Source: a virus (taxonomy: Duplodnaviria; Caudoviricetes). Taken from it: 58,563 nucleotides of DNA. Location of the stretch: positions 1 through 58,563 of IMG/VR virus record IMGVR_UViG_3300020045_006445. One strand, given 5' to 3'. Numbering within the stretch: position 1 is the stretch's first letter; each line of letters begins with the position of its first letter. Below the pieces are notes generated by a model. That model was not told where the DNA came from. It searched no databases and saw only the letters and a list, made by a program, of their open reading frames with translations. This document shows, one piece after another, positions 1-53,515 of this stretch. A program made the translations under genes and the position numbers.

Positions 1-1
1 G

Positions 2-520
2 TGGATTAAAGGCAATGCGGTTTTTGAAGGCGATGAACTTGAATTTGAAGTTGACACCGAGACGGGCCGCCGCCGTATCATCAAACACAAGCAGACACTT
101 GACAGCGTTGGAACAAACAAACTTAAAGGCGCGTATGCGGTTTACCAATTGACCGACGGTACGGTAGATGTCGAGATAATGAACATCAGCCAGATCCAAA
201 CGTCTTGGAATCAAGGCGGGTCGAAAGGCGGATCACCTGCCCATAAGAACTTTGCCGATCAGATGGCAATTAAAACGGTCATCAACCGCGCCTGCAAATT
301 ACTTGTCAGCAGCTCGGACGATTCGATCCTTTATGATCCACTCGAAGAAGAAAGAGCGATTCCTGTTACAGAGGAAAACGTGAAGCTTGAAGTTCGTCAG
401 AATGCAAATGTTCAGCGTCTTGACTTTGCAGAGGAAATAGCGCACGAAGAAGTTGCCGAGGAAGTTGCGCCGGTTGAGATTCCAAAAGAAGAACCCGCTT
501 TAGCTGAACCACCTTTCTAA
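2..520 (+). CDS. recT: RecT-family single-strand annealing recombinase (5' truncated by window edge)
   Basis: Frame open from base 2 (WIKGNAVFEGDELEFEVD...IIKHKQ...KGAYAV); FADQMAIKTVINRACK motif typical of RecT; acidic tail; neighbours an MBL nuclease. Confidence 0.85.
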   Translation, partial: WIKGNAVFEGDELEFEVDTETGRRRIIKHKQTLDSVGTNKLKGAYAVYQLTDGTVDVEIMNISQIQTSWNQGGSKGGSPAHKNFADQMAIKTVINRACKLLVSSSDDSILYDPLEEERAIPVTEENVKLEVRQNANVQRLDFAEEIAHEEVAEEVAPVEIPKEEPALAEPPF

Positions 521-801
521 TGTTTACGCAAGGGAATTGGAAAGTCGGTAAAAACATGGGATGTGTTGTTACTGACGAAACGCCTACCGATAAAGATGTA
601 CAAACAGGTCACGGTGAAGTTGAATACTACGGCGGTCTTCTCATTTGCGAAAGCGTGAGAACTCCTGACGACGCAACGCTAATTGCAGCGGCGCCAGAAA
701 TGTTACGCGCACTACAGGCGGTATTGAATCTGGGCGAGTTTCACGAAACTGGACAAATCGGTTCAATATTGATCAACGCAATAAACAAAGCGACAAAATA
801 A
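520..801 (+). CDS. Phage hypothetical protein (DAxLIAAAPEML family)
   Basis: ORF coupled to both neighbours; recurrent phage motif LIAAAPEML. Confidence 0.7.
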   Translation: MFTQGNWKVGKNMGCVVTDETPTDKDVQTGHGEVEYYGGLLICESVRTPDDATLIAAAPEMLRALQAVLNLGEFHETGQIGSILINAINKATK

Positions 802-1556
802 TGGAACTCAAAGTAATTGCCACCGGCAGTAAAGGAAACGCCTACGTGCTCGAAAATGAGCACGAGGCACTCCTTATCGAATGTGGTGTAAAAGTGTCCG
901 AGATCAAAAAAGCAATCGGATTCAATCTCTCGAAAGTTGTCGGCGCAATTGTAAGCCACGAACACAACGATCACAGCAAAGGAATAAGCGAGGTTGCTGC
1001 AGCCGGAATCAACGTCTATGCAACGAAAGGAACCCATTTAGCAGTTGGCGCAAAGGCAAACCAAAACGGGCCGTCCCATCGAATGAAAACTATCGTCGCC
1101 TGCAAAGAGTTCACCATCGGCAATTTCAAGATACTGCCGTTCGATGTAAAGCACGACGCCAAAGAGCCTGTTGGCTTCCTGATCGAGCACAAAGACTGCG
1201 GCAAAGTATTGTTCTTAACCGATACATACTACTGTAAATACGTGTTCTCAGGCCTGAACAACATCATCATCGAGGCCAATTACGACGTTGACATCATAAA
1301 GGCGAAATACGGTGCCGATTCAGGAAAGGAATTTCTGAAAGACCGAATCTTTCAATCGCATTTCAGCTTGACGAATTGCAAAGAATTGCTGGCTTCAAAC
1401 GATCTGTCAGCGGTAAACAACATCGTCCTGATTCACTTGTCTGATTCGAATTCAGACGAAGCGATGTTTGAGAAATCAGTACGCGACCAGACAGGTAAGA
1501 ATGTGATTGCCGCTAGAAATGGAATGGTAATGAATTTTAACAGAACGCCTTTTTGA
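801..1556 (+). CDS. Metallo-beta-lactamase-fold hydrolase (YycJ/WalJ-like exonuclease partner of RecT)
   Basis: TGSKGN start, SHEHNDH (HxHxDH), HDAKEP, TDT, EANY and HLS motifs. Confidence 0.9.
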   Translation: MELKVIATGSKGNAYVLENEHEALLIECGVKVSEIKKAIGFNLSKVVGAIVSHEHNDHSKGISEVAAAGINVYATKGTHLAVGAKANQNGPSHRMKTIVACKEFTIGNFKILPFDVKHDAKEPVGFLIEHKDCGKVLFLTDTYYCKYVFSGLNNIIIEANYDVDIIKAKYGADSGKEFLKDRIFQSHFSLTNCKELLASNDLSAVNNIVLIHLSDSNSDEAMFEKSVRDQTGKNVIAARNGMVMNFNRTPF

Positions 1557-1557
1557 C

Positions 1558-2004
1558 ATGATCTTCAACGCCCAAAAAGAACTCGACGTAATCAAAGCAA
1601 CCGACAGGCTAAAATTCCTGATCGAAAAAAAGAAACGATTTGAGATAACCGAAAAGAAGCCGATCAGGTCGTTGAGCCAAAACAGCTACTTGCATTTGAT
1701 ACTGGCCTATTACGCGCTTGAATTTGGCGAGACAGCCGATTACATCAAGCAGGAGGTTTTTAAGAAGAAGGTGAACCGGGAAATCTTCGAGTTTGAATTC
1801 TACAACCGTAAAACCTACGAAGTCAGGACTGAATATAAAAGCACCGCGAAACTCGACACAAAGGAACTCACCATCGCAATTGAAAGGTTTAAGGAATTCT
1901 CGATGCGTCAGGCAGGTTTTAGACTACCGGAACCCAGCGACCTCGCGTTCCTTGACGAAATAAGAAATGAAGTTACAAAATACGAAAGTTTAATTTATCT
2001 GTAA
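1558..2004 (+). CDS. NinB/Orf-like recombination accessory protein
   Basis: RSLSQNSYLH and STAKLDTKEL...IE motifs, LPEP near C-terminus; located in recombination module. Confidence 0.6.
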   Translation: MIFNAQKELDVIKATDRLKFLIEKKKRFEITEKKPIRSLSQNSYLHLILAYYALEFGETADYIKQEVFKKKVNREIFEFEFYNRKTYEVRTEYKSTAKLDTKELTIAIERFKEFSMRQAGFRLPEPSDLAFLDEIRNEVTKYESLIYL

Positions 2005-2009
2005 TTACT

Positions 2010-2300
2010 ATGGAAAATCAGATCACAATGGATTTCACAAATCCAATACCTCACATCGAGAACAACGTTGAATCGCAGCACTTCTACGAAGCAAACGCTG
2101 ATAAGTTCAACAATCAGTGCAAAACGGTCTACGAGGCACTTTTAAGGGGCGAACGTCTCACGGTGTTGGAATCGGCTATCAAATACGGAATCGGCCATTT
2201 ACCCCGTCGAATTCTCGACCTCAAAAATCTGGGCGTGAATGTTCTGGATGAACGGATGAAAGGCGGTTACAAGGAATATTTTTTAATTCAAAATTCATAG
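2010..2300 (+). CDS. Winged helix-turn-helix protein
   Basis: LLRGERLTVLESAIKYGIGHLPRRILDLK pattern of small phage wHTH proteins. Confidence 0.65.
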   Translation: MENQITMDFTNPIPHIENNVESQHFYEANADKFNNQCKTVYEALLRGERLTVLESAIKYGIGHLPRRILDLKNLGVNVLDERMKGGYKEYFLIQNS

Positions 2301-2302
2301 AA

Positions 2303-2665
2303 ATGCAAGTAGAAGGAAAAATAAGAGCAATAAAAGCAGAGCAACAAGTATCTGCTTCATTTAAAAAACGTGAGTTGATCGTTACGACCAATGAGCAATA
2401 CCCGCAACACATCCTGATTGAATTCGCGCAAGACAAATGCGATTTGTTGAACAGCTACAAACCTGGCGACGATGTGAAAGTTTCAATCAATCTTCGCGGC
2501 CGAGAATGGGTAAATCCTCAAGGCGAAGCGAAATACTTCAATCAAATTCAGGGCTGGCGCGTGGAAAAAGTACAATCTGATTCGCCGGCGGCATCGAATG
2601 AACAGCCACCATTCGAACCTGCAGCCATTTTCAACGAGGAAGAACACGATGATCTGCCTTTCTGA
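2303..2665 (+). CDS. DUF3127-type single-stranded DNA-binding protein
   Basis: FKKRELIVTT-EQYPQ-I-IEF-QDK, INLRGREW, YFNQIQGWR, acidic DDLPF tail. Confidence 0.85.
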   Translation: MQVEGKIRAIKAEQQVSASFKKRELIVTTNEQYPQHILIEFAQDKCDLLNSYKPGDDVKVSINLRGREWVNPQGEAKYFNQIQGWRVEKVQSDSPAASNEQPPFEPAAIFNEEEHDDLPF

Positions 2666-3042
2666 TGGAAGCCATCATCGATAATCAAAGCCGAAAATGT
2701 TCGAAATGTAAAAGAAATTTGCCTTTTGTTCATTTTTCAAAGAGCAGAAGAAAAAGATCAGGATTTGAATCGCAATGCAAGGTCTGCACAAAAGAGAGGG
2801 TTTTAAGCAATGAACTTGACAGGATTCAGAAACTCAAATTATCAAGGTTAACAAACGTAGATGTTGTCTGCGCCAAAGCCTACGAATCAGATCGAACATA
2901 TTACATATTCAGGAGCACACACGAGCAGGTTGTTTTAACGATCACAATCAGCGATCATGTATCAAGCAGCGTTCCATTATTCGAATATGAGAAAGCTTAT
3001 TTAAAAGCCAATTATCCATATTTCAAATTCTATTCACCATAA
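2665..3042 (+). CDS. Zinc-finger hypothetical protein
   Basis: CSKC...CKVC at N-terminus. Confidence 0.55.
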   Translation: MEAIIDNQSRKCSKCKRNLPFVHFSKSRRKRSGFESQCKVCTKERVLSNELDRIQKLKLSRLTNVDVVCAKAYESDRTYYIFRSTHEQVVLTITISDHVSSSVPLFEYEKAYLKANYPYFKFYSP

Positions 3043-3204
3043 ATGGCAAAAATAGAAAAGAATGAAATGCCGGTGTTCGAGAAACAATACCGTGAGATTA
3101 TCCTTAAAAAAGTTACCGAAAATACCACAGAATACGACCAACAAATAAAAATCATTGAAGCCAAAATTGACTATTTCAATTGGGGAATACGTGAAAAAAC
3201 CTAA
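3043..3204 (+). CDS. Small hypothetical protein (53 aa, not in ORF track)
   Basis: ATG at 3043, MAKIEKNEMPVF...REKT*, fills the gap exactly. Confidence 0.5.
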   Translation: MAKIEKNEMPVFEKQYREIILKKVTENTTEYDQQIKIIEAKIDYFNWGIREKT

Positions 3205-3213
3205 CGAAATAAT

Positions 3214-3924
3214 ATGAACGCACCAGCATTTCAGTTTTACGCCCAGGACTTCCTAACAGGCGTAATGTATTTAACAAGCGAAGAAAAAGGCATCTACATC
3301 ACCATGCTTTGCAAACAATGGACTGATGGTAAGATACCCAAAAAAAGGCTAGGCTTTCTTGTGGGTTTAGAATGGGAATCATTCTCTGACGAGCTAAAAG
3401 AAAAGTTTGAAGATTGCGGTGAATATGTAGTAAACAATAGGCTTGAGAGCGAAAGAAACAAAAAAAGCCGATATGTTGAGAAGCAGGTCGAAAACGGAAA
3501 AAAAGGCGGACGTCCTCGAAAAACTGATGATTCAGAAGATAAATATAATACCCAAATTAAAAATTCAAAAACCCAAACGAAAGCTTTTCTTATTGAAGAT
3601 GAAGATGAAATAGAAAAAGAAGAAGTAATTGAAAAAAAAGAAAAACCGCAAAGATTCGATCTTCTAAAAATCCCCGAATCATTTAAACCGCTTTGGATCG
3701 AATGGCTGGAATATCGAAAAGACAAAAAGAAGAAACCCTATGCCGGGCCCAAGTGGGAGCAAATCGCAATAGACAAGTTCGTCGAGTTGTCAAGTAACGA
3801 TCCGATAATAGCCAAAAAAATCCTTGAGCAAACGATTTCTAAAAACTGGGAGGGATTCTTTGAATTAAAATCGCAGGCTCCGACATCTCACCAACAACAA
3901 TCAACATTTCAAACTAACAGATGA
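3214..3924 (+). CDS. DUF1376/YdaU-like replication initiator
   Basis: PAFQFYAQDFLTG...EEKGIYITMLC-QW, NGKKGGRP, C-terminal W-EW-EYRK...NW-G-F domain; precedes a DnaC-like ATPase. Confidence 0.75.
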   Translation: MNAPAFQFYAQDFLTGVMYLTSEEKGIYITMLCKQWTDGKIPKKRLGFLVGLEWESFSDELKEKFEDCGEYVVNNRLESERNKKSRYVEKQVENGKKGGRPRKTDDSEDKYNTQIKNSKTQTKAFLIEDEDEIEKEEVIEKKEKPQRFDLLKIPESFKPLWIEWLEYRKDKKKKPYAGPKWEQIAIDKFVELSSNDPIIAKKILEQTISKNWEGFFELKSQAPTSHQQQSTFQTNR

Positions 3925-4403
3925 TTATGAAAGCAATAAAAGAAAATAGAATGCAAATCGACCTTTTTAACGAAGATAAGGCATTGCTTATAGCTGCGGT
4001 AATGAGTTGTTCGAGCTGGATTTCAATTGCCGAAGAATTGCCGCCCGCGCACACTTACGTTTTAGCGAGAAGTCACTACTGCAAACATCCTGCAGACATT
4101 GCATATTACAACGGTTACGGTTTTAAGAGTGTAAACCATGGAAAATTTTACAATGTTATTTATTGGGCAAAAATAATTACTGAAAATCTTCCAGAATTTG
4201 ATAGAGCAGTTTTAGAAAAGCATCAGGACGAATTAAAACCTGAAACGCAAACTGCGCTGAATCTCGATACAATCCTACAGTATTTTGAAAAGGGTTCATT
4301 TGCTTACCTATCAGGCGAAGGACATTGGTACATAGAAGACACTCCGGTATCGCGTGGTGAGGTTTTACGTCTAATTTCCAATGATTTGAAAAATAACTCA
4401 TAA
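3921..4403 (+). CDS. Hypothetical protein with DUF551-like WIS-EELP domain
   Basis: SWISIAEELP...VIYW motif. Confidence 0.55.
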   Translation: MIMKAIKENRMQIDLFNEDKALLIAAVMSCSSWISIAEELPPAHTYVLARSHYCKHPADIAYYNGYGFKSVNHGKFYNVIYWAKIITENLPEFDRAVLEKHQDELKPETQTALNLDTILQYFEKGSFAYLSGEGHWYIEDTPVSRGEVLRLISNDLKNNS

Positions 4404-4453
4404 CGACCTTATCCGCGCACAAATAATACCATTATCACTCCAACTTCTTTACC

Positions 4454-5335
4454 ATGAACCAACAAATAGAAATCCAATCAATCGGCATCCGAAAATACGA
4501 GCACCTGAAAAGCCTTAAGGCAGAGGAGTTGACCGAAACCCAAAAGCGCCAGGTCGAGATTTACGAATCAAGACAAAGATCAGCCACGCCTGAACAAATC
4601 GAACTGCAGCATAATTACTTCGACAAGATCATGGCTCCAAAGGATAAAGTTGATTTTTCAATCGAAGCGCGCGAACTCTGGGAGAACTTTCGGGCCAACT
4701 TCGAAAAGGTCAACGGGCGGCCGTTTATCAAGATCCCAAACGTAACGATCAAGAACCTGGAGCCGTTGATTTATTACTTCTCCAAAGACCAGCGTTTCTT
4801 TCAATCCGAAAATCTTTCGCTGATGTCAAAGCCAAGTTTCGACAAAGGGCTTTTGATCGTCGGAAACTTCGGTAATGGAAAAACATCGGCAATGAAAGTA
4901 TTTGAGTTTTTGTTCAAGAACATCCAAGGCCACAGCTTCAAGGGATATTCGGCAAACGAAGTGGTTTTGATGTTTGAGAAATGCACAGGCGACAAGGCCG
5001 AGATACTTCGCCAGGAATTCGAAACAATCATGTGGCGAGGCAACCGGTACTTCGATGACCTGAAAACAGAACGCATCGCATCGAACTACGGCAAGGTAAA
5101 TATCTTCAAGGAAATCTTGGAAGAGCGTTACAGTCGCATGGTTCCGAACCGAGAATTATATCCGGACAAGCCGACAGCCAAGACTTTCATTACCTGTAAT
5201 TACGAAGATCATTCGCCAGGTGATTTAAAAGCAGCGATCGATGAATTCGGCACCAAGTACGGTGGCCGGGTTTATGATCGGATATTCGAGATGTTCAACA
5301 TCGTTGAGTTCAAAGGCAAAAGCTTTCGGGAATGA
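4454..5335 (+). CDS. P-loop ATPase, DnaC/IstB-like helicase loader
   Basis: Walker A GNFGNGKT, Walker B YFDDL, ITCN, YGGRVYDRIFEMFNIVEFKGKSFR. Confidence 0.85.
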   Translation: MNQQIEIQSIGIRKYEHLKSLKAEELTETQKRQVEIYESRQRSATPEQIELQHNYFDKIMAPKDKVDFSIEARELWENFRANFEKVNGRPFIKIPNVTIKNLEPLIYYFSKDQRFFQSENLSLMSKPSFDKGLLIVGNFGNGKTSAMKVFEFLFKNIQGHSFKGYSANEVVLMFEKCTGDKAEILRQEFETIMWRGNRYFDDLKTERIASNYGKVNIFKEILEERYSRMVPNRELYPDKPTAKTFITCNYEDHSPGDLKAAIDEFGTKYGGRVYDRIFEMFNIVEFKGKSFRE

Positions 5336-5949
5336 TCGAATCCAAGCCGTGTTTCGGAAAACACAAAGCGACCGGATTCGATGCCTGCGGCAAAATAACC
5401 AAGGTTAAGTACTTAAAATACGGCCTCTGCCCTAACTGTTACCCGACCTGGTTATTCTCAGACAACGATCTTGCAAAGCTCGAGCGCGAAAAGTTTTTGG
5501 GTGCCAATAAAAATAAAGTCGAAAAAGAGCAGAAAGTCAAAGACAGTGAACTTCGAGAAAAACTTAAAACGCTTACGCAACTAGAAAACGAAGCCAAGTT
5601 ATCATTCCAAAAGTTCATTCGGCTTCGGGATGCTGAGTTAGGATGCGCGAGTTGCCATACCACAACAACCGATCTATGGGATGGCGGCCACTGGAAAAAA
5701 GCCGAAATCTACTCTGGATTGATCTTCGACGAAAGAAACTGCCACAAGCAGTGTAGAAAATGCAACAGATACCTCGGAGGTAACGAAGGAGAGTATCGAA
5801 TTAAGCTCGTTCATCGGTTTAGCGAGGATTGGGTAAGGCAACTCGAAGATGATGCAAATAAGACCCGTAATTACAAATATGGCCGGGATGAATTGATTGG
5901 GATAAAGAAAATTTACGATTTGAAGATTAAGGAACTTTTGAAAAAATAG
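5332..5949 (+). CDS. ninG: NinG/Rap-like junction endonuclease
   Basis: FQKFIRLRD, CASC, DGGH, FDERNCHKQCRKCNRYLGGN. Confidence 0.85.
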   Translation: MIESKPCFGKHKATGFDACGKITKVKYLKYGLCPNCYPTWLFSDNDLAKLEREKFLGANKNKVEKEQKVKDSELREKLKTLTQLENEAKLSFQKFIRLRDAELGCASCHTTTTDLWDGGHWKKAEIYSGLIFDERNCHKQCRKCNRYLGGNEGEYRIKLVHRFSEDWVRQLEDDANKTRNYKYGRDELIGIKKIYDLKIKELLKK

Positions 5950-5952
5950 CCA

Positions 5953-6225
5953 ATGCAGAAGCAATTAACCCTCGACCTGTTCGACCCTCCATTCATCGAA
6001 TCAGCAAATAATCTGCTGCACGAATTAAACGATGGCCGAAAAAAGGATTTCTTCGATGCCGTTAAGATATATCAGCATGGTGATTTATATATAATGACAG
6101 CGGAGAATAAAGAATCAGGAATTTTCTGTAACGTGGTGGATGTCAACGGCAAAACACCTGTCGGATTTAGCGCCAATTGGAGAAGAAAGGCGCATATTTT
6201 GGATGATATTAAAGTTTCGGTCTAA
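5953..6225 (+). CDS. Hypothetical protein
   Basis: ORF with ATG following ninG. Confidence 0.6.
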   Translation: MQKQLTLDLFDPPFIESANNLLHELNDGRKKDFFDAVKIYQHGDLYIMTAENKESGIFCNVVDVNGKTPVGFSANWRRKAHILDDIKVSV

Positions 6226-6457
6226 GGATCCCATTGTAGTTTCCGTCCTGATCGTAAAAGTGAACGAAGTCTTTGTCTGCCTCGATAAGTTCAAAAACCG
6301 AACAGTCAAGAGCATCGGCGATTTTTTGAATGATTGTCATTGACGGATTTCCGTTAACATGGGTGCTTAGCGATTGACGGGTAATATCCATTCGCTTCGC
6401 AAGACTTGAAACATTCAATCCTTTTGCTTTTACAACTTCTTTTATACGCAGTTTCAT
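6209..6457 (-). CDS. XRE-family HTH transcriptional regulator
   Basis: MKLRIKEVVKAKGLNVSSLAKRMDITRQSLS...GNPSMTIIQKIADALDC; the only convincing minus-strand gene. Confidence 0.85.
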   Translation of the reverse strand: MKLRIKEVVKAKGLNVSSLAKRMDITRQSLSTHVNGNPSMTIIQKIADALDCSVFELIEADKDFVHFYDQDGNYNGILRPKL

Positions 6458-6461
6458 AATG

Positions 6462-6561
6462 CAAATATATAAAAATTAAACGATCAGCTTACATAATTAA
6501 AAAATTGTCCGAAGAATTACTGCTATTTATTTTGTAGTGTCGCGTGATAGACTTACATTTG
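6462..6561. promoter_or_regulatory. Divergent Bacteroidota-type promoters
   Basis: Minus strand TATATTTG (CAAATATA 6462-6469) just before the XRE start; plus strand TTTG 6531 with TACATTTG 6554-6561. Confidence 0.65.
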
Positions 6562-6580
6562 AACTTTAATAATTACCATT

Positions 6581-6877
6581 ATGATAAATTTATTATCGGA
6601 TAAAGATTTGTTCAAACTTCAATCGAGATGCGAATCAACTATCGACGATTATTCGAAAACAAGGTCATCGATTTGCGACAATTATCATCTGGCCAAGACA
6701 ATAATCAGAAAGTTGCTCGAGCAGAATCCGGAAAGTCTTTTTAAGTATCAGAAACGACCGGGAACGTTGAAACTTCGGGATATATGCAAAGAAGTCGGAT
6801 TTGATTACTGGGCCCGACTAGACATAAGCAACGCAATTGATTACCTGGATTGCGCATTTACAAACCACAACCGCTAA
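6581..6877 (+). CDS. Hypothetical protein
   Basis: First ORF after the 6554 promoter. Confidence 0.6.
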   Translation: MINLLSDKDLFKLQSRCESTIDDYSKTRSSICDNYHLAKTIIRKLLEQNPESLFKYQKRPGTLKLRDICKEVGFDYWARLDISNAIDYLDCAFTNHNR

Positions 6878-6888
6878 CCCGACCACAA

Positions 6889-7233
6889 ATGAAAACGAGT
6901 AAAGTACAATTTGGGCAAGCAGCCACCGCAGATTTTGAAGAAAACACATACACCTTTGAAATGGACGGTGAATTTGAAGTTCGTGCAGGTAAGTACGCGA
7001 TCGTTCCAATTGAAACTTGGGAACAACACTTGGCAGATTTCGATAAAATGCGGTCGGCTTTGGAAAATGCAAAGAAGCAAATACAATACCTAGAAAGCAG
7101 AAGAGGTGAGAGAGAAGATGCAATTCCACCTTTTTATTATACAACCGTATCTATTTTAAAAGAGATTGACGGCATTTTAAATATGACTTACAACAAACAA
7201 TGTTTAACGCCTTCGGGTGAAAAATTGAAATGA
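6889..7233 (+). CDS. Hypothetical mosaic protein (array slot 1, version A)
   Basis: Likely start ATG 6889 (MKTSK); shares HLADF-KMRSALE and LTPSGEK segments with 54550-55017. Confidence 0.65.
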   Translation: MKTSKVQFGQAATADFEENTYTFEMDGEFEVRAGKYAIVPIETWEQHLADFDKMRSALENAKKQIQYLESRRGEREDAIPPFYYTTVSILKEIDGILNMTYNKQCLTPSGEKLK

Positions 7234-7234
7234 T

Positions 7235-7576
7235 ATGGAAACACTACACCTAAACTTGAAGCGAAAATGGTTTGATATGATTGCCTCTGGTGAAAAGCTG
7301 GAGGAATACCGCGAAATTAAGCCGTATTGGGATCGTAGATTCATTGATGAAAAAAGACAAAACATTTTAGACGCTACAACCGCATTTGAAATTGCTTGGA
7401 AAAATTTCAACACGATCACTTTCAAAAATGGCTACCAAAAAGACGCGCCAACTATCATCGTAGAATGTAAAGGAATCGAGATCGGCAAGGCAAAGCCAGA
7501 GTGGTAAGACAATTGGCAAGGCTATGTTTTCATTATTAAGCTTGGCGCAATCGTCAACCCCTCACACCAACAATAA
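7235..7576 (+). pseudogene. ASCH-domain protein with in-frame TAA at 7505-7507
   Basis: LHLNLKRKWFDMIASGEKLEEYRE is ASCH-like; the frame continues after the stop as DNWQGYVFIIKLGAIVNPSHQQ*. Confidence 0.7.
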
Positions 7577-7612
7577 CCCTCCCGACAATAACTTAAACTT
7601 ATAATTATGAAA
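7562..7612 (+). repeat. Array anchor L2 (second copy 55164-55214)
   Basis: TCACACCAACAATAACCCTCYCGAMAATAACTTAAAYTTATAATTATGAAA, 3 mismatches. Confidence 0.95.
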
Positions 7613-7921
7613 AAAACAATCAGTGTAGATCTAGGAAAAGAAGACTACATAATTGCCTTGATGAAAGACATAAATTTCGTGGAAATTGATAGATCAATAT
7701 GTGGCGGAACAATGAGTTCTGAAAAAATTCAATTAACTTTTGAAGGCGATGAAAGCGATTATAACGAAAATGGCTATGTTCAAATAATAAACAATACCCC
7801 ATATGTCGGATATAGTTACTACTATTCTTTGGGGTTTCCCGAAGGCTATTACACAAATGACATCGAAAGATTCAAAAGCGTTCATCTAAGCAAACAAGAA
7901 ATTACGGTTAGTCACTTTTAA
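7607..7921 (+). CDS. Hypothetical protein (slot 3A)
   Basis: ORF bounded by anchors L2 and L3. Confidence 0.65.
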   Translation: MKKTISVDLGKEDYIIALMKDINFVEIDRSICGGTMSSEKIQLTFEGDESDYNENGYVQIINNTPYVGYSYYYSLGFPEGYYTNDIERFKSVHLSKQEITVSHF

Positions 7922-7950
7922 CCCTCCCGACAAGGGAATAAATAACACTG
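7916..7950 (+). repeat. Array anchor L3 (second copy 55389-55423)
   Basis: 35 bp identical TTTTAACCCTCCCGACAAGGGAATAAATAACACTG. Confidence 0.95.
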
Positions 7951-7955
7951 AAATT

Positions 7956-8162
7956 ATGACTGAACAAGAAGTGACCATCAGATTTAACTCTTTGCCAAGA
8001 GAGATCAGAACCACAATAATAGGATCTGAAATATCTACCGAAATCAATTGGCTTAAAAGGGAGAAAAAAAGAGCGCAAGACCAGCACTCAAAAAACATTC
8101 GGGATATAAACGAGCGCATCGTTAGACTCAGCAAAAATCTTGAACAACTGAAAGATGATTAG
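7956..8162 (+). CDS. Small coiled-coil hypothetical protein (slot 4A)
   Basis: ORF between anchors L3 and L4. Confidence 0.6.
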   Translation: MTEQEVTIRFNSLPREIRTTIIGSEISTEINWLKREKKRAQDQHSKNIRDINERIVRLSKNLEQLKDD

Positions 8163-8173
8163 AACCAACCCCC

Positions 8174-8221
8174 TTTACTAACCCCTGCTTCAATCGGGGA
8201 ATAACACTCAAACGGAAATGG
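8174..8221 (+). repeat. Array anchor L4 (second copy 57148-57195)
   Basis: 48 bp, 1 mismatch: TTTACTAACCCCTGCTTCAATCGGGGAATAACACTYAAACGGAAATGG. Confidence 0.95.
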
Positions 8222-8703
8222 AAACAAAAATTAAATTATCAGAAATTGAAAATAAGTTTTTGATTGTTGTAAAAGGCGAAGAGCACAAAGTCGTTTATGA
8301 TGTTGACGATAGCCGTATTTTTTCCGTACACGTTACGGGTTGCGGCCGAGGTTCAAGAAATGCAGTCTTGTCAAGGAAAACATTTTTCTCAAACACTAAA
8401 AAAACAGGAAAGGCAATTGAATATTTAGAAAGCAGTTTTCGCGGGGTTGAATTTTGTTCGGTTTTGTTTGCCGAATTAAAAAACATTTCAAAGACAGGTT
8501 ATGAAAACTTGATTGAAGATATTGAAGATTACAACCGAGATATTGATTTTGACCGAGAATACCAAAAAGAAGAAAATGCAGCTTTTCAAGCCGAATACGA
8601 AAAGACTAAGGAAAAAGCGATAAAGCTGATAAATGAAAAGTTCATATTTGAGATAGAAGAAACTGACGACAGCGGCGGTTACACGACAATTAAAGTTAGG
8701 TAA
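8218..8703 (+). CDS. Hypothetical protein (slot 5A)
   Basis: ORF between anchors L4 and L5. Confidence 0.65.
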   Translation: METKIKLSEIENKFLIVVKGEEHKVVYDVDDSRIFSVHVTGCGRGSRNAVLSRKTFFSNTKKTGKAIEYLESSFRGVEFCSVLFAELKNISKTGYENLIEDIEDYNRDIDFDREYQKEENAAFQAEYEKTKEKAIKLINEKFIFEIEETDDSGGYTTIKVR

Positions 8704-8740
8704 ACACTCACTTAATAAACAACTTAAAATATAGATTATG
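8703..8740 (+). repeat. Array anchor L5 (second copy 57484-57521)
   Basis: 38 bp identical AACACTCACTTAATAAACAACTTAAAATATAGATTATG. Confidence 0.95.
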
Positions 8741-8971
8741 TCGCACGTAGTAGTAAAATTTTCAACAGATGATGGCGGTGAAAAAGTAATTAAGGATGAT
8801 TGGCACTTAGTTATTAACTCGGCAGGATCGTCTAGCAAATTATGCACGTTAGAGGTTTTTGGATTTGGAGAAAGCGGATCGGTGTATAAGGAAAAAGAAG
8901 TTGATAGAGGTGGGATAACTTGTAAAAATTGCTTGCGTGAAATTAATTTTTTTAAATCAATAAAACTGTAA
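8738..8971 (+). CDS. Small Cys-containing hypothetical protein (slot 6A)
   Basis: WH...LC...ITCKNC. Confidence 0.65.
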   Translation: MSHVVVKFSTDDGGEKVIKDDWHLVINSAGSSSKLCTLEVFGFGESGSVYKEKEVDRGGITCKNCLREINFFKSIKL

Positions 8972-9011
8972 CCCGCCCTTTTCAATCTAGGTGGAAAACA
9001 ATAATTTAAAA
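8969..9011 (+). repeat. Array anchor L6 (second copy 58062-58102)
   Basis: TAACCCGCCCTWTTCAATCTAGG(TG)GAAAACAATAATTTAAAA, 1 substitution plus a 2-nt indel. Confidence 0.9.
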
Positions 9012-9019
9012 TAGGAGAA

Positions 9020-9211
9020 ATGGAAACTTACAAAATTGGAGATATTGTTCCGTACTTAAATACCCGTAGCAATCAAAAAGAAGCAGAAATAACTTCTTTT
9101 AAAGAACTTGAGAACGGCAAAATTTGGTTTTACGGAATCGATACAGTTACTAAGGCAAAAGTGTTTTATCCAGTTCACATTTCTAAAGATCTTAAATCTA
9201 ATAATTTATGA
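9020..9211 (+). CDS. Small hypothetical protein (slot 7A)
   Basis: YKIGDIV...WFYG, SH3/KOW-like pattern. Confidence 0.6.
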   Translation: METYKIGDIVPYLNTRSNQKEAEITSFKELENGKIWFYGIDTVTKAKVFYPVHISKDLKSNNL

Positions 9212-9516
9212 ACCCACTCATACCAAAACAAGAAGCGGAGAAAGCGGCTAATGCCCTTTATCCTAAAAAATTCAATGAGCATTATTCTCAACGAAATCAA
9301 GATAAAAGAGGCGGCTACCGTAAAGCAACCGAAGCCGCCAACGCAAAATACACCCAGGTAACTCCCGTTTTAGAAAAACAAGTTAATTTATTGGGGGAGA
9401 TTGGTGCTTCATTATACGCTTTCAACACAATCAATTTGGACAAATCTGTTGAATTAATGGGTAAAATCAAGTCCGCTTTATCCGATCTCAACGAACTTTT
9501 AAAAACAGAGGAATGA
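9208..9516 (+). CDS. Hypothetical protein (slot 8A; allele at 58333-end)
   Basis: First 44 bp and 9336-9456 are identical to the ORF at the window end; the middle differs. Confidence 0.7.
   Translation: MNPLIPKQEAEKAANALYPKKFNEHYSQRNQDKRGGYRKATEAANAKYTQVTPVLEKQVNLLGEIGASLYAFNTINLDKSVELMGKIKSALSDLNELLKTEE
9336..9456 (+). repeat. 121-bp exact direct repeat of the window end (58443-58563)
   Basis: CGCCAACGCAAAATACACCC...CAAATCTGTTGAATTA identical in both places. Confidence 0.98.
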
Positions 9517-9701
9517 TGGAAAAAACAATCGACGACTTTATTATAGAACTACAAAGAATTAGCGAGGACAAACGAAAATTGCCTTTGGTTATATCGTGTT
9601 CCAATGGAGAGCTTGCCTATCCATCAATAAAAATGCTTTGGAACGATCAATCTGAAATCTTTAGCGGAAAATTACCAGACAAAATGATTATAACTTTTTA
9701 A
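9513..9701 (+). CDS. Hypothetical protein
   Basis: Coupled ORF in small-gene array. Confidence 0.6.
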   Translation: MMEKTIDDFIIELQRISEDKRKLPLVISCSNGELAYPSIKMLWNDQSEIFSGKLPDKMIITF

Positions 9702-9714
9702 AAACATAGTAATT

Positions 9715-10056
9715 ATGAATACAGAAACAAAAGGCGTTTTAATAATTGTTTCAATTGGAATATTGGCAATTTTTATACTTACTCAAATCGAAAAAATAAA
9801 AAGAAAATCCTATCAAAAAGGATGGAATGAAGGCAGAAAAGATATTGCAAATAGACTTTCTGGATCAACTTTTTGGATAAAAGAAAATCCAATGCTTACA
9901 AACTTTTTATGGATAGTTTCAAACTACATAAAGGAATTTGACAATTTAGACATCGATAACGTCAGGAATAAAATACAAAATCTAGGAAATACTAAAGTTC
10001 ACGATTTGCCAATTGATGAACGAAAAGAATACTTTCCAAAAAACCAATCAAAATGA
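9715..10056 (+). CDS. Hypothetical membrane-anchored protein
   Basis: N-terminal hydrophobic helix GVLIIVSIGILAIFIL. Confidence 0.6.
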   Translation: MNTETKGVLIIVSIGILAIFILTQIEKIKRKSYQKGWNEGRKDIANRLSGSTFWIKENPMLTNFLWIVSNYIKEFDNLDIDNVRNKIQNLGNTKVHDLPIDERKEYFPKNQSK

Positions 10057-10484
10057 TCACAAAAAAACACGCATCCGAAGCCTTTGGATATGGGTATAGG
10101 ATTGAGTACTTAGGAAAGCAATTTCTCCCTGAAAGAGTTTCAGATTTAGATTTTTACGGATCTTTTGAAGGTGGAAGGTCTTTTTATGTACCCTTTGAAT
10201 GGTTTGGGGACACTGCCAAAATCCTATCGCGCCCATTTTCACACCTAACGAAAGAAATTACCGTTGACGGGGAAACATTTGTGCCTATTGAAAGATTAAA
10301 AAAGCAGTTTTACAATATTGAGTGGAGGTATATTACAATGCCATTTAACGTGGACATTGCACTTGACTCGAATAGCGGGATAAATTTTGAATTGACTTAT
10401 GATGAAATGGATGAAGTTCTTGGAAAACTAAAACAATGGGGCTTTTCATTTTTTGACGATAGCGTGGTTAAATGGATGGAATAA
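10053..10484 (+). CDS. Hypothetical protein
   Basis: KILSRPFSHLTKEITVDGETFVPIE motif common in Bacteroidota phage early genes. Confidence 0.65.
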   Translation: MITKKHASEAFGYGYRIEYLGKQFLPERVSDLDFYGSFEGGRSFYVPFEWFGDTAKILSRPFSHLTKEITVDGETFVPIERLKKQFYNIEWRYITMPFNVDIALDSNSGINFELTYDEMDEVLGKLKQWGFSFFDDSVVKWME

Positions 10485-10540
10485 CTTAAAAATTAATTAT
10501 TAATCAGGCGAACTTATCGGTTCGTTGCAATACTAAAATT

Positions 10541-10741
10541 ATGGCAGAAAAAATTAAAATCACAGGATTTCACTTAGAAAGGGAATTGGTAAATAATCAA
10601 TTAAGGTTGATAATGACTGATGAAAATGGCGAGGAATATGTTCTCTCGGAAAGAACGGCTTGTTCGGAAGGTGGTCAATCTCAGATTATTTGTAAAAAAT
10701 CAGAAGATTGGTATTTCAATCCTGAAAACAAATTAAAATGA
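10541..10741 (+). CDS. Hypothetical protein
   Basis: ORF with A-rich leader. Confidence 0.55.
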   Translation: MAEKIKITGFHLERELVNNQLRLIMTDENGEEYVLSERTACSEGGQSQIICKKSEDWYFNPENKLK

Positions 10742-11031
10742 AAAATGAATTTCACCCAATGTGGAAGCGGCCACAGGTTTGTAAATACGATGACAGGCTC
10801 AGCGAAACCGTGATTGTTTACGGTATTGATTTCGACAAAACAGACATAGACAACAGTAAAATTGATGATGCCGTGTTAGGCTGGTTTGATTTTGAAAAAC
10901 AAGAATGGTTTGTGCATTCCGATGATTCATCAATGCTTATTTGTTGGGCTGAAATACCCAATCCACAGGATTTTATGAAAGATAAGTTTCGTGATTGGTC
11001 TGTCGAATTCCACAACGGTTATCAGCAATGA
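10738..11031 (+). CDS. Hypothetical protein (DUF551-like)
   Basis: W-RP...GWF...EW...ICWAEIP pattern. Confidence 0.55.
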   Translation: MKNEFHPMWKRPQVCKYDDRLSETVIVYGIDFDKTDIDNSKIDDAVLGWFDFEKQEWFVHSDDSSMLICWAEIPNPQDFMKDKFRDWSVEFHNGYQQ

Positions 11032-11089
11032 CCGCTAACCAAATAACCAACCCCTTTCCATTCACACGGATGGGATAAAATTAAAAGAT

Positions 11090-11839
11090 ATGAAAATAAC
11101 AGATTTGACAGAGAATGACGCGGTGCATTGTGCGACGAGAAAAGAATTTGAGAGAATATATGAATTGCTGCCAAACAGACAATTTAATTTTAGAAATGTT
11201 TTTGAAAAACCTGTAAACACACACGTAGTTTATAAAAATGGAGATTTATCCACGATTCAAAGAGCGAAAAATCACCAAATTAACATCATTCCATCCGAGC
11301 AAATAACAGACACCGTTGAAGCGACTGCAAATAACGAGGTCGTTTTTAAACCAAAAATACACGATTGGTTTGAATTGTCTTATGCGCAATATTTAACCAT
11401 CCCTAGGTCAGCTTTACAGTCAATGCCAGATGTTTGGCAAGAGGTTTTTACCGCGCATCTTGAAGAGCTTGACAGCGCAATTGATTGGCGACCAGAAAAC
11501 GGACGTTACTGGGTCAGACTACGTGATGAAAATGGCAGGTATGTTTCAGACCCGTTACAAGATTATCAAAGAGGCAGGCGAGTAATCCCTTTCGTTGACG
11601 GCTATGCCCCTGCTTCGAGTGAATCCAAACTGCTTACAGAGGCGGTCGAGATATTAAACAAATCTGAACCTTGGCCGTTAAGAAACATTTTATCAAAGCT
11701 AGTCGAGGCTTCCGAAATATTGCTTCACGACAAAAATTATGATGGACACGGATGGGAAAATATATCAGTTTGTGCGGATTTAGCAAAACGATATGTTATT
11801 GAAATCGAATCATTCCTATCAAAAAACAATAAACCATGA
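11090..11839 (+). CDS. Multi-module hypothetical protein
   Basis: Three apparent modules: AVHCAT-KEF; IHDWFELSYAQYLTIPRSALQSMP; PWPL-ILSKL-EA-EILLH-KNYDGHGWE. Confidence 0.7.
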   Translation: MKITDLTENDAVHCATRKEFERIYELLPNRQFNFRNVFEKPVNTHVVYKNGDLSTIQRAKNHQINIIPSEQITDTVEATANNEVVFKPKIHDWFELSYAQYLTIPRSALQSMPDVWQEVFTAHLEELDSAIDWRPENGRYWVRLRDENGRYVSDPLQDYQRGRRVIPFVDGYAPASSESKLLTEAVEILNKSEPWPLRNILSKLVEASEILLHDKNYDGHGWENISVCADLAKRYVIEIESFLSKNNKP

Positions 11840-12210: not shown

Positions 12211-12494
12211 AAACACTTAATAAAGTCGAGATTATTCCAGTATTCAATGATTTCTGCCCGTCAGACGAAGATATGATGCCGAATCATATTTACATATCTG
12301 AAAAATATAAGTCAGCAAATCATTTGTGCCTTTGTGGATGCGGTAATCTGGTAATCCTGCCTATTTATAACGATGGATGGAAACTGATTAAAGAAGGCAA
12401 TGGAAAAGTTTCGTTTACGCCAAGTGTTGGTAATTACCAGATAAAATGTAAATCGCATTATATCATCACTAATAACGTTGCAAATTTTGTTTAA
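12207..12494 (+). CDS. DUF6527-like Cys/His protein
   Basis: HLCLCGCG...W...VSFTPSVGN...CKSHYIIT. Confidence 0.7.
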   Translation: MKTLNKVEIIPVFNDFCPSDEDMMPNHIYISEKYKSANHLCLCGCGNLVILPIYNDGWKLIKEGNGKVSFTPSVGNYQIKCKSHYIITNNVANFV

Positions 12495-16946: not shown

Positions 16947-17573
16947 ATGAGCACTACATTACCAAAAATTGCGGATATTTACGAAAATCGCGTAACGGTT
17001 CAAAAGAACGATGTTTTTGTTACTTTGATGAACCAGCCGCCAAAAAAAGAATGGGTAAAAACGCACCCATTTATTAAGAACTACAATTACATACCGATTG
17101 AACGCGTCGAGTTTCTGCTTAAAACCATATTCAAAAAATACCGCATTGAGGTTTTGCGCGAGGGAACAGCTTTCAATGGTGTTTTCGTTGTGGTTCGCGT
17201 TCACTATTTGCACCCGCTTACAAACGAAATGGAATTCCACGATGGTATAGGCGCAGCTCAATTGCAGACAAAAACAGGCACTTCGCCAGCTGACCTTGCA
17301 AACATAAACAATGGCGCGTTATCGATGGCTTTTCCGATTGCTAAAACTATTGCGATTAAAGATGCGTGCGATCACTTCGGTAAATTGTTTGGCGCAGACC
17401 TTAACCGTAAAGACTTGATTTCTTACGATCTTGACCTTACACTTATTGATTTGACACCCGAACACCCAAATTGGAATAAGGTAAAAGAAGCGGTTACAAC
17501 TGGCGCGTTTACAATTGATCAGGTCAGGACGAAATACAACCTATCCGATGAAAACGAAAAACTTTTGAAATAA
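16947..17573 (+). CDS. Sak/Rad52-like single-strand annealing protein
   Basis: Likely start ATG 16947; YIPIERVEFLLKTIF, DGIGA, AIKDACDHFGKLFGADLNRKD; immediately upstream of YqaJ exonuclease and SSB. Confidence 0.65.
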   Translation: MSTTLPKIADIYENRVTVQKNDVFVTLMNQPPKKEWVKTHPFIKNYNYIPIERVEFLLKTIFKKYRIEVLREGTAFNGVFVVVRVHYLHPLTNEMEFHDGIGAAQLQTKTGTSPADLANINNGALSMAFPIAKTIAIKDACDHFGKLFGADLNRKDLISYDLDLTLIDLTPEHPNWNKVKEAVTTGAFTIDQVRTKYNLSDENEKLLK

Positions 17574-18178
17574 TGGAACAGTTTATTTTAAGGGCCAGCA
17601 AAGCAGGATCTATAACAACCAATCCTAAAGATAAAACCGCGCTTATTGCAAAAGGTGTTGAATCATTTGTTTACGAATGGGTAAAAGAGCAGATTTACGG
17701 TGTTCGTAAAGAAATAAAATCGAAATACCTAACCAAAGGATTGACACTCGAAGATGAGGCGATTGACCGAGCGATTGAGTGGCTGGATTTGAATTTCACC
17801 ATCAAGAACGACAAGCGTTTTACGGATGAATATTTTACAGGCGAACCAGATTTAATTATTGGCGATACAGTTTACGACATCAAATGCAGCTGGGATTGTT
17901 TTACTTTTCCTTTATTTGATACCGAAGTGCCTACGCCCGATTACTTTTATCAATTACAGGTTTATATGCACCTGACCGGCTGCAAAAAAGCGGTTCTTAC
18001 TTATGTGCTTTTGAACACACCGCCCGAACTTACATACGAGGCAAAATACAATTACGATGAACTCGATAAAAAATACAGGATCAAAACGTTTGAGTTTGAT
18101 TTTGACAAATCAATTATTGACGACTTGAAATCCCGTGTCGATAAAATAAGGGAATTTATCAAACAAATTAAATATTGA
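17573..18178 (+). CDS. YqaJ/lambda-exonuclease-like nuclease
   Basis: RAS, KG-TLEDEAI, TGEPD...DIKCSW (PD-(D/E)xK), YFYQLQVYM. Confidence 0.85.
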   Translation: MEQFILRASKAGSITTNPKDKTALIAKGVESFVYEWVKEQIYGVRKEIKSKYLTKGLTLEDEAIDRAIEWLDLNFTIKNDKRFTDEYFTGEPDLIIGDTVYDIKCSWDCFTFPLFDTEVPTPDYFYQLQVYMHLTGCKKAVLTYVLLNTPPELTYEAKYNYDELDKKYRIKTFEFDFDKSIIDDLKSRVDKIREFIKQIKY

Positions 18179-24021: not shown

Positions 24022-24438
24022 ATGGCCAGACCAAGCGAATACGACTTTGAATTGTGTAAGGAAATCTGCGAGGAAATAGCAGGTGGTACAAACATAATTC
24101 GCGCACTTGAATTAAAAGACAACTATCCCAGTTGGCCAACATTCCGTAAATGGAAGAACGAAAACACGGAATTACTTACATTGTACGTAAGCAGTCAACA
24201 GGACAAAGCAATTGCGCTCGAAAACGAAATTGACGATTTGCGAGATAGGTTGCTTCAAAACGAAATCGATTATCAAACCTACAATGCATTAGTCAATACC
24301 CTAAAATGGAAAATGGCTAAAATGTATCCTAAAGTTTTTGGCGACAAGACCATTCATTCAGGGGATGAAGACAACCCAATCCAAGTAGTTACCAGACCGC
24401 GAATAGAGTTTGTCAAAAAAGACAATGAAGTCGATTAA
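24022..24438 (+). CDS. terS: Terminase small subunit (Sf6 gp1-like)
   Basis: MARPSEY...EICEEIAGG, PSWPTF-KW, LKWKMAKMYPKVFGDK; upstream of terL. Confidence 0.85.
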   Translation: MARPSEYDFELCKEICEEIAGGTNIIRALELKDNYPSWPTFRKWKNENTELLTLYVSSQQDKAIALENEIDDLRDRLLQNEIDYQTYNALVNTLKWKMAKMYPKVFGDKTIHSGDEDNPIQVVTRPRIEFVKKDNEVD

Positions 24439-40566: not shown

Positions 40567-40595
40567 TATTGTAGGGCATAGTTGATATTAGGGGT

Positions 40596-40622
40596 AAGCC
40601 GCTCGACACGTTTGGGCGGCTT
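40596..40622 (+). terminator. Intrinsic terminator
   Basis: AAGCCGCTC...GGGCGGCTT followed by TATTT. Confidence 0.65.
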
Positions 40623-40660
40623 ATTTAGTTTGTTTCTTAATTGGGATTGGTGTAGGTTTG
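40623..40660 (+). promoter_or_regulatory. Moron promoter with Fur-like box
   Basis: ATTTAGTTTGTTTCTTAAT 40623-40641, 11-bp gap, TAGGTTTG 40653-40660. Confidence 0.6.
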
Positions 40661-40680
40661 TGGAATAAACTATGTGATTT

Positions 40681-41454: not shown

Positions 41455-41487
41455 CACTTTCATATCCATAATAATTGATTAGATTGT

Positions 41488-41524
41488 AAAAATCCGTTTT
41501 CGTGGTTGTTAACGGATTTTTTTA
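41488..41524 (+). terminator. Intrinsic terminator
   Basis: AAAAATCCGTT...AACGGATTTTTTT. Confidence 0.75.
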
Positions 41525-41537
41525 TTATCTTCGCATC

Positions 41538-53341: not shown

Positions 53342-53471
53342 TGACCACAATAAAAATACACGCCCCGCAAAAGGCAACCGTCAACGATAAGACCTGCGAC
53401 AACCTGACCGACGAAGAACGGGCAGCAGTCTGGCAGTTCATTGACGACTGGCTGCGAATGTTTCCCAAACC

Positions 53472-53501: not shown

Positions 53502-53515
53502 ATTGCCCAGTCGCT

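Follow-up and report, generated by a model that had tools for sequence, protein, structure and literature searches.

A linker-and-slot array of small early genes, in three versions with different cargo, from a Bacteroidota phage contig and its relative

Introduction

A long-standing question about phage genomes is how their mosaic junctions arise: homologous exchange could take place at short conserved sequences, or breaks could fall at random, with selection sorting the products. A tailed-phage record (Duplodnaviria; Caudoviricetes), IMG/VR virus IMGVR_UViG_3300020045_006445, raises it within a single contig: two gene arrays, at 6.9–9.5 kb (array A) and 54.5–58.6 kb (array B), share short near-identical segments in the same order, with different genes between them. 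We analyzed the whole record (58,563 bp; hereafter ‘the window’), which is classed as linear and assigned a CheckV completeness of 100. In our map of 105 genes, only two lie off its + strand. We call the conserved segments anchors or – where they join two genes – linkers, the positions between them slots, and the genes in the slots cargo.

Results

Two arrays share ordered anchors around different genes

A blastn comparison of positions 6001–11000 with 53001–58563 at word size 11 identified nine colinear pairs of anchors, in agreement with a first-pass annotation that had reported ordered short matches between the two regions. A repeat search returned the same pairs. Given as array A/array B, all on the + strand, the matches are:

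7012–7065/54808–54861, anchor, 87% identity
7194–7237/54984–55025, anchor between the ‘first’ gene and slot 1, 87%
7562–7612/55164–55214, L2 match, 94%
7916–7954/55389–55427, L3 match, 97%
8174–8224/57148–57199, L4 match, 96%
8703–8740/57484–57521, L5 match, 100%
8969–9011/58062–58102, L6 match, 93%
9208–9251/58333–58376, L7 match, 100%
9327–9456/58434–58563, terminal anchor, 98%

The longest exact runs within these anchors are, in order, 21, 23, 20, 35, 35, 38, 19, 44, and 121 nt, and identical runs of 23, 35, 38, and 44 bp reported earlier agree with this measurement. A start match at 6887/54548 is 12 nt long (E 2.7) and not significant alone. Ten matches of at least 39 bits were present in the real pair – the nine colinear anchors plus an off-diagonal duplicate at 7937–7964/55892–55918 – compared to none in 100 dinucleotide-preserving shuffles of the B region (shuffle maximum 32.5 bits).

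The genes of the two arrays are:

6869–9516, + strand, array A (delimited by open reading frames (ORFs) and anchors)
6889–7233, + strand, array A ‘first’ gene
7235–7507, 7607–7921, 7956–8162, 8218–8703, 8738–8971, and 9020–9211, + strand, six array A cargo genes
9208–9516, + strand, array A ‘last’ gene (102 aa)
54532–58563, + strand, array B (start anchor to contig end)
54550–55017, + strand, array B ‘first’ gene
55023–55178, 55209–55394, 56757–57155 (132 aa), 57192–57485, 57519–58052, and 58103–58327, + strand, array B cargo genes
55426–55875, + strand, array B RadC gene (Pfam RadC, 3e-31)
56050–56781, + strand, array B slot 3 GIY-YIG/NUMOD3 homing endonuclease gene (Pfam NUMOD3 1.4e-8, GIY-YIG 2.9e-6)
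58333–58563, + strand, array B ‘last’ gene, cut by the contig end

Between anchors, A and B differ in the number and lengths of their genes. When the 27 array proteins, including those of the third version described below, were compared all-against-all by blastp, only the ‘first’ (A/B E 2.9e-9) and ‘last’ (A/B E 1.5e-33) genes matched; same-slot cargo pairs gave E values of 0.089 or worse, or no match. The earlier suggestion that matching slots carry unrelated cargo thus appears sound at the level of sequence comparison, and the genes of slots 1 and 3 also differ in Pfam family and greatly in length, which likewise points to unrelated genes. An ASCH label proposed for the product of 7235–7507 was not recovered: this protein matches no Pfam family at E≤10, and its sole family match is phrog_625, whose function is unassigned. 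In the ‘first’ gene, the ‘last’ gene, and a gene at 10053–10484, the termini are conserved and the interiors are replaced.

Two further features of the cargo were observed. The sequence ATGGAAAC (Met-Glu-Thr) opens four cargo genes (at 7235, 8218, 9020, and 55426) and one other of the 105 mapped genes; given these starts, conservation may extend slightly, by a few bases, past the ORF starts. The 43 nt upstream of the endonuclease gene (55986–56028) are 90.7% identical to positions 12409–12451 of an otherwise unrelated RecT-type phage contig (locus L094), at a site just after a homologue of the window’s 2010–2300 gene, which suggests that the GIY-YIG/NUMOD3 gene is a mobile endonuclease unit carrying its own upstream region.

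Linkers run from the end of one gene to the start of the next

In all three versions of the array, identity sets in at the stop codon of the upstream gene, or a few nucleotides from it, and extends as far as the ATG or at most 6 nt beyond. The linkers are 30–55 nt long and intercistronic, consisting of the stop, a short spacer (sometimes with a weak hairpin), an A-rich leader, and the next ATG. The conserved unit is therefore ‘gene end – spacer – gene start’ and not the intergenic region alone. This anatomy, the breakpoints, and the existence of three versions are direct observations, and they match the first-pass description of linkers that extend from upstream stop to downstream ATG and persist while the ORFs between them are replaced. 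The linkers are:

7556–7609 (B 55164–55211), + strand, L2
7916–7958 (B 55389–55428), + strand, L3, with a 4-bp hairpin
8174–8220 (B 57148–57194), + strand, L4, with a 5-bp hairpin
8701–8740 (B 57483–57521), + strand, L5, 38 nt identical, unstructured, identity ending at the ATG
8968–9022 (B 58062–58105), + strand, L6
9208–9251 (B 58333–58376), + strand, L7, the first 44 nt of the ‘last’ gene, the same in A and B, with 42 and 41 nt identical to the relative G001 (below)
55892–55911, + strand, second copy of the 3' part of L3, about 19 nt, 3' of the RadC gene

The start anchor, the anchor between the ‘first’ gene and slot 1, and L7 are likewise gene ends and starts. TAACCC opens five of the intergenic linkers and closes nine of the 105 mapped genes.

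Slot specificity, which had been proposed for most anchors, is not strict. L2 and L3 have a 15-nt core, TAACCCTCCCGACAA, in common; L4 and L5 have an 8-nt core, AACACTCA, in common; and part of L3 is duplicated in array B, where the second copy is followed by a 23-codon stump beginning like the A slot 3 gene, then the endonuclease gene, the 132-aa gene, and L4. In B and G001, the upstream gene extends into the 5' part of L2, which supplies its final codons; in A, that part is non-coding – a switch that looks like a crossover relic.

We considered and rejected roles for the linkers as hairpins or promoters. Small hairpins had been noted earlier, and 4–5-bp stems can indeed form in L3, L4, and L6 (about −6 to −7 kcal/mol, with no T run following), but these folds are no better than those of shuffled sequences (z −1.8 to +0.5), and L2 and L5 fold at 0 kcal/mol, that is, are unstructured. 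Sigma-70-like sites numbered 23 versus 17.9±4.3 and 25 versus 18.5±4.2 in shuffles, and a promoter match at 9–10 of 12 positions occurred only in L5 and the B copy of L2, in a scan whose scope was sigma-70 promoters and thus not those of Bacteroidota, which differ from them. Terminators were not enriched in the linkers, and no Rfam family matched them.

A complete relative carries a third version

IMGVR_UViG_3300020045_008475 (hereafter G001) is a 44,806-bp contig with direct terminal repeats (DTRs) that is rated 100% complete and contains one array. Its tblastx matches to the window are colinear from 10.0 to 53.2 kb; it then continues into its own array and on to homologues of the window’s 10–11 kb genes, so that the lysis-side terminator, the array, and homologues of the 10–12 kb genes are adjacent. 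A blastn comparison with the window placed the anchors in the same order at 40526–41890 of G001, with the following identities to array A:

Start anchor, 92.5% over 40 nt
Anchor between the ‘first’ gene and slot 1, 92.9%
L2, 97%
L3, 100% over 38 nt
L4, 96.7%
L5, 97.4%
L6, 91%
L7, 100% over 42 nt

In the same comparison, homologous structural genes were 70–81% identical; conservation of the linkers, at 91–100%, thus far exceeds that of the coding backbone. An independent, complete genome thus replicates the scaffold proposed in the first-pass annotation, with the same linker order, other cargo, and empty slots.

The G001 cargo comprises a SpoU methylase in slot 1 (Pfam 5e-20), an 80-aa protein in slot 5, and a 51-aa protein in slot 6, none of which resembles A or B cargo by blastp among the 27 array proteins. 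Across the three versions, slot 1 holds three unrelated genes: a phrog_625 member (A), a basic 51-aa protein (B), and the SpoU methylase (G001). Slots 2, 3, and 4 of G001 are empty: half of L2 (its 5' side), half of L3 (its 3' side), the L4 core, and L5 succeed one another within 114 nt (41291–41405). The joints between these fused linkers fall inside the common cores – that of L2/L3 inside TAACCCTCCCGACAA and that of L4/L5 inside AACACTCA. Beyond the array proper, anchors at 9469–9503, 10045–10105, 10425–10504, and 11043–11137 of the window also bracket genes unrelated between the window and G001, continuing the pattern to about 11.1 kb.

The G001 ‘last’ gene (41850–42168; 1850–2168 of locus L005) is split: an ORF of 69 aa overlaps one of 52 aa, and the two between them span the window’s 102-aa protein. 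The split reflects either a frameshift or a sequencing error.

The window appears to join two phages at the array

The geometry of the contig bears on whether A and B belong to one genome. The contig starts inside a RecT gene, with only profile positions 78–187 of 198 represented (bases 5–349), and ends inside the array B ‘last’ gene, without a stop codon. Its last 121 nt (58443–58563) are an exact copy of 9336–9456; its last 130 nt align with 9327–9456 with mismatches at 9329, 9334, and 9335 only, so that the exact copy starts right after 9335. The terminal repeat is exactly 121 nt in all three DTR contigs that we examined (G001 and two unrelated contigs from the same metagenome series, G003 and G004), indicating that 121 nt is the k-mer overlap of the assembly and not a biological feature. 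In the window, this overlap closes onto position 9336 instead of position 1, which looks like a 9335-nt tail entering a 49,107-bp circle:

1–9335, + strand, ‘tail’, with no counterpart in the circle or G001
9336–58442, + strand, ‘circle’ of 49,107 bp, with circular colinearity to G001 by tblastx
58443–58563, + strand, terminal 121-nt copy of 9336–9456, read as assembler overlap at a graph vertex

Positions 1–9200 gave no tblastx match to G001 at E≤1e-8 and at least 50 bits, and RecT is absent from G001. A simple circle of the whole contig was rejected: translation carried on from 58563 to position 1 runs immediately into stop codons, and nothing in the first 1500 nt is repeated elsewhere in the contig.

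We conclude that the tail and the circle probably derive from two related, co-assembled phages, which would make arrays A and B allelic forms of a single locus; the conclusion rests on the tail-plus-circle geometry, the 121-nt overlap, and the colinearity of G001, with its one array, with the circle alone. A single genome would have to encode two different annealases (RecT and a Rad52-like protein), a further point in favor of an assembly join. The first-pass annotation had taken the arrays for two loci of one genome; given this contig form, alleles are likelier.

Several observations touch on the two parts of the contig. The record, rated 100% complete and linear, probably follows a tail-plus-circle path and exceeds its underlying genome of 49.1 kb by about 9 kb. 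The RecT loci L094–L104, including L097 (contig G005, 54,665 bp), lie on contigs of 46–55 kb and have a RecT – hydrolase – NinB – 96-aa gene block in common with the tail; the 10 kb 3' of their RecT genes are free of array anchors, and the tail lineage may be distinct from the circle lineage. The end of the tail’s single-stranded DNA-binding protein (SSB) gene (2636–2666) matches G001 5999–6029 (31 nt, 90%), close to the G001 homologue of the window’s 18183–18551 gene, and this match is possibly a further anchor joining the tail module to another part of the backbone.

Annealases and recombinases

The proposal that both annealase types are encoded in the window is supported by the following genes, with the Rad52-like assignment resting on a structure prediction:

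2–520, + strand, RecT (partial; PHROGs and a profile match)
16947–18178, + strand, Rad52-like gene (16947–17573) and exonuclease gene (17573–18178), the circle’s own recombination pair

The exonuclease belongs to phrog_5715 (6e-49). An AlphaFold2 model of the 208-aa product of 16947–17573, built from 25 homologues, had a mean predicted local distance difference test score of 74.3. In a Foldseek search with this model, the top seven Protein Data Bank matches were human RAD52 (probability 1.00, E 3.4e-6 to 3.0e-5, template modeling (TM) scores 0.37–0.54). As these TM scores are modest, the model lends moderate support to a Rad52 N-terminal fold. The protein matched no Pfam family at E≤10, and a six-frame search with PF04098 (Rad52_Rad22) gave no match.

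The database holds 3096 relatives of this protein, the best 120 of which are 72–100% identical to it, and the two-gene block with the exonuclease occurs in 352 IMG/VR stretches. It thus appears to represent a very widespread, unnamed family of putative annealases. Six-frame searches for site-specific recombinases with PF00589 (Phage_integrase) and PF00239 (Resolvase) gave no matches in the window or G001 and did match control genomes.

Searches for further versions of the array

Records closely related to the window may be hidden from view in the collections that we searched, which limits the following results. Scans with the ‘last’ protein and with exact linker patterns each found only G001 among viral contigs and nothing in metagenome or genome contigs. 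The full 38-mer was present in no other record among the viral contigs, and a query aligned from the 10053–10484 protein and its G001 homologue again found only G001. A protein-database search with the ‘last’ protein returned the query itself and two distant proteins (31–34% identity).

Loci selected for other shared genes gave a similar picture. Array anchors were found in none of 80 loci sharing the Rad52-like gene, where two weak matches fell inside a B cargo gene; 20 of the 80 extend at least 7 kb upstream, and these loci have only 16.9–18.2 kb in common with the window. Nor were anchors found in any of 13 loci sharing RecT or any of five sharing the DnaC-like gene. The broader first-pass claim of exchange among dissimilar Bacteroidota phages at large finds no support in these scans and the 80 and 13 loci, in which the anchors are confined to the window and G001.

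Other features of the window

The remaining mapped features are consistent with a tailed phage of Bacteroidota:

1–6.2 kb, + strand, tail genes by PHROGs: RecT fragment, hydrolase, NinB, SSB, HNH/EndoVII-like, O-like primosomal protein, DnaC-like loader, and NinG
6209–6457, − strand, helix-turn-helix (HTH) gene just upstream of array A
9.5–23 kb, small genes, exonuclease, helicase, and AAA ATPase
24425–25759, terminase, followed by virion genes
50768–51220, endolysin
53472–53495, + strand, terminator-like hairpin after the lysis genes, common to G001, at the start of the early region upstream of array B
53627–54049, Dam methylase

By blastn, 53471–53504, which includes the terminator-like hairpin, matches G001 40200–40233. 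The Bacteroidota assignment fits the terminase, whose nearest cultured relatives are from Nonlabens, Riemerella, and Flavobacterium phages (~36% identity). No tRNA genes were found in the window. Among GenBank phages, the Dam gene gave a match, and the only other one found was of 101 nt (7241–7341) to a Polaribacter phage gene annotated as an RNA-binding protein.

A candidate promoter lies upstream of array A. The sequence TACATTTG at 6554–6561 is 19 nt 5' of the ATG at 6581, in a 355-nt divergent region beside the minus-strand HTH gene, and presumably fits the Bacteroidota −7 promoter motif TAnnTTTG. It is likely, judging from this motif and position, to be an early promoter driving array A.

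Comparison with known systems

The linkers resemble the boundary sequences of lambdoid phages, short near-identical sequences at gene borders that flank non-homologous segments and have been proposed as exchange sites between related phages. The boundary or linker idea is said to belong to modular theory and to comparisons of HK620 and HK97. PMC3029335 summarizes the idea of boundary sequences as sites of homologous exchange and, in that summary, notes that they are not found at most mosaic junctions. Here, eight junctions common to A, B, and/or G001 lie at gene borders with identity falling to background on both sides, and the same junctions stand beside different modules in different genomes (three versions, one in G001). 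In contrast to the lambdoid case, they form an unbroken series of at least eight, each running from stop codon to start codon, in three versions with empty slots, and the hosts are of Flavobacteriia type and not enterobacterial.

A second likeness is to the promoter early stem-loop (PeSL) sequences of T4-type phages, which are described in PMC2839356 (see also PMC4122927) as one family of about 50 copies per genome, each with a strong sigma-70 promoter and a stable stem-loop terminator. Both are stop-to-start intergenic cassettes flanking ORFans in early regions, and recombination between neighboring elements, which inserts, deletes, or replaces single genes in the hyperplastic regions with PeSLs, would do so here as well. 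For PeSLs, a circular one-gene intermediate (mini-circle) is reported as shown in PMC2839356, and the L3 duplication around RadC is the trace expected from integration of such an intermediate. Unlike PeSLs, the linkers in the window have no promoter excess, form weak structures or none, and for the most part belong to a single position, sharing just the short cores of L2/L3 and L4/L5. On this comparison, the locus would work like PeSL-mediated shuffling, yet the linkers, which are neither promoters nor terminators by our scans, are not PeSLs.

Other systems are alike in part. Annealases from temperate phages and defective prophages of Escherichia coli act on short or diverged homologies, and RecT and Rad52-like proteins are encoded here; the homologies in that work are longer, and the present case is known from sequence alone. 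A bacterial tandem paralogue cluster described in PMC2568036 conserves the 3' end of an ORF, the intergenic region, and the 5' end of the next ORF while interiors vary, but its members are chromosomal paralogues, in contrast to unrelated cargo in a phage early operon. Integrons, including phage-borne ones as presented in PMC9892861, also have ordered single-gene cassettes with short recombination-associated separators. We rejected an identity as an integron: neither genome has an integrase by the PF00589 and PF00239 searches, and the 30–55-nt linkers contain no attC-type repeats or attC-like imperfect palindromes (stems of at most 5 bp, or none) and match no Rfam family.

We found no description of such an array in Flavobacteriia phages in the open-access literature that we searched. 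The boundary-sequence and PeSL ideas are already known, however, and the window offers a clean linker-and-slot case and not a new kind of system.

Discussion

How did junctions stay constant while the genes between them changed? We favor linker-guided homologous exchange between co-infecting relatives, combined with an assembly join of two alleles, as the best explanation and one that is rather likely correct. The locus would then be a hypervariable early array of small accessory genes on one strand, in which content between constant junctions is exchanged. Recombination would be catalyzed by phage single-strand annealing proteins (RecT in the tail, the Rad52-like protein in the circle), with crossovers in the linkers. 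Minimal efficient processing segments are put at 23–27 bp for Red-beta and 31–34 bp for RecA in PMC3945230, and most of the exact runs in the linkers (19–44 nt) reach the Red-beta range. Recombination between the short cores of neighboring linkers would insert or delete single genes, which may explain the fused G001 linkers and the L3 duplication around RadC, since these are the products expected from it; the duplication could also result from a single crossover with a circular one-gene intermediate. Because linkers would supply both a stop context and a translation start region, any ORF placed between two of them would be expressed, and the slot 3 homing endonuclease could add double-strand breaks that stimulate local conversion. 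We infer the join, the crossovers, the enzymes, and the expression of inserted ORFs from the arrangement of the sequences.

Several points weigh against this interpretation. The traces of recombination at the linkers (the fused linkers and the L3 duplication) are indirect, and the needs of expression could by themselves account for linker conservation. No annealase was recognized in G001 (no matches to Pfam RecT, Rad52, ERF, or AAA_24), nor any tblastx match to 16947–17573. The anchors occur in no record searched beyond the window and G001, and there are three array versions only, with no cargo gene common to any two, so that slot-by-slot exchange is not distinguished from an older divergence of whole arrays with conserved linkers. 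The assembly join rests on the geometry of the contig and on one relative, and a true intragenomic repeat would also give a shared 121-mer vertex. Finally, the tail is not foreign by tetranucleotide usage (r = 0.88, compared to 0.83–0.97 for other contig windows), although this measure is uninformative on its origin.

The chief alternative to the join is a single real genome of at least 59 kb that carries both arrays as direct paralogous repeats, in the order lysis – Dam – array B – (unassembled stretch) – RecT…NinG – HTH – array A – remaining early genes, with the contig broken at the repeated 121-mer. An intragenomic repeat of at least k nt yields the same vertex and the same contig end, the gene order can be read as two successive operons, the tail is no tetranucleotide outlier, and array A, like the G001 array, lies just 3' of an HTH gene and promoter region. 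We nevertheless consider a single genome unlikely. It requires a second, unexplained break inside RecT despite the even coverage expected, and the complete relative has one array, through which the lysis region runs into the 10–11 kb genes. With two annealases present, ten direct repeats in the same order, one of them at least 121 nt long, should recombine and delete the interval between them, and phage genomes are usually without repeats, in the account of PMC3945230. Nor did the 10 kb upstream of RecT in relatives match the window (tblastx with six RecT relatives; blastn with 13).

Two further alternatives concern the linkers, whichever genomes they belong to. If they were kept for expression only – as translation starts, a regulator site, or RNA processing sites – cargo would have been replaced by illegitimate recombination and selection for intact gene borders, the account usually given of phage mosaicism. 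Linkers do end at the ATG and carry A-rich leaders, and the early operon also has unrepeated intergenic regions laid out in the same way (stop – small hairpin – leader). Breaks at random, followed by selection, do not, however, predict nucleotide-identical breakpoints at six consecutive junctions in three versions, fused linkers joined within their common cores, or the direct duplication of part of L3 around RadC. Functional constraint alone, moreover, rarely gives 97–100% identity over 35–44 nt when homologous coding DNA is 70–81% identical, and the 5' part of L2, which codes for protein in B and G001 but not in A, resembles a relic of recombination; we therefore regard conservation for expression only as quite improbable. 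At the other extreme, the array could be a dedicated, selected system of addressable cassettes, as the first-pass annotation had it, with an address for each slot and cargo moving freely among unrelated Bacteroidota phages. In keeping with this, cargo differs among the three versions at every slot, some slots are empty, and the linkers exceed the genomic backbone in identity; and if the tail is RecT-type and the circle Rad52-type, the scaffold is common to phages with different recombination modules. Yet no cargo is common to any two versions, the anchors are absent from all other records searched, neighboring linkers have cores in common and so are not unique addresses, and neither genome has a Phage_integrase or Resolvase match, which together make such a system very unlikely in our view.

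A bolder form of linker-guided exchange also deserves mention. The linkers might be a maintained, integrase-free, position-addressed recombination scaffold at which annealases swap exact ORFs between RecT-type and Rad52-type phages; we think this improbable. If true, the exchange itself would keep linker identity high, the ‘linker’ idea of modular theory would hold at the resolution of single genes, and exchange would span phages that differ even in their recombination and head modules.

The join carries a caution for virome catalogues: a ‘100% complete’ contig can merge two strains, inflating genome size and mimicking an internal duplication. Such tail-plus-circle cases could be flagged by checking whether a contig end is identical to an internal site over the assembler’s k.

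For phage mosaicism, the array is an unusually clean natural case, with at least eight consecutive junctions, nucleotide-exact breakpoints at stops and starts, three versions that include empty slots and fused linkers, and two kinds of annealase nearby. The locus could thus be a model for testing linker-guided exchange in Flavobacteriia phages.

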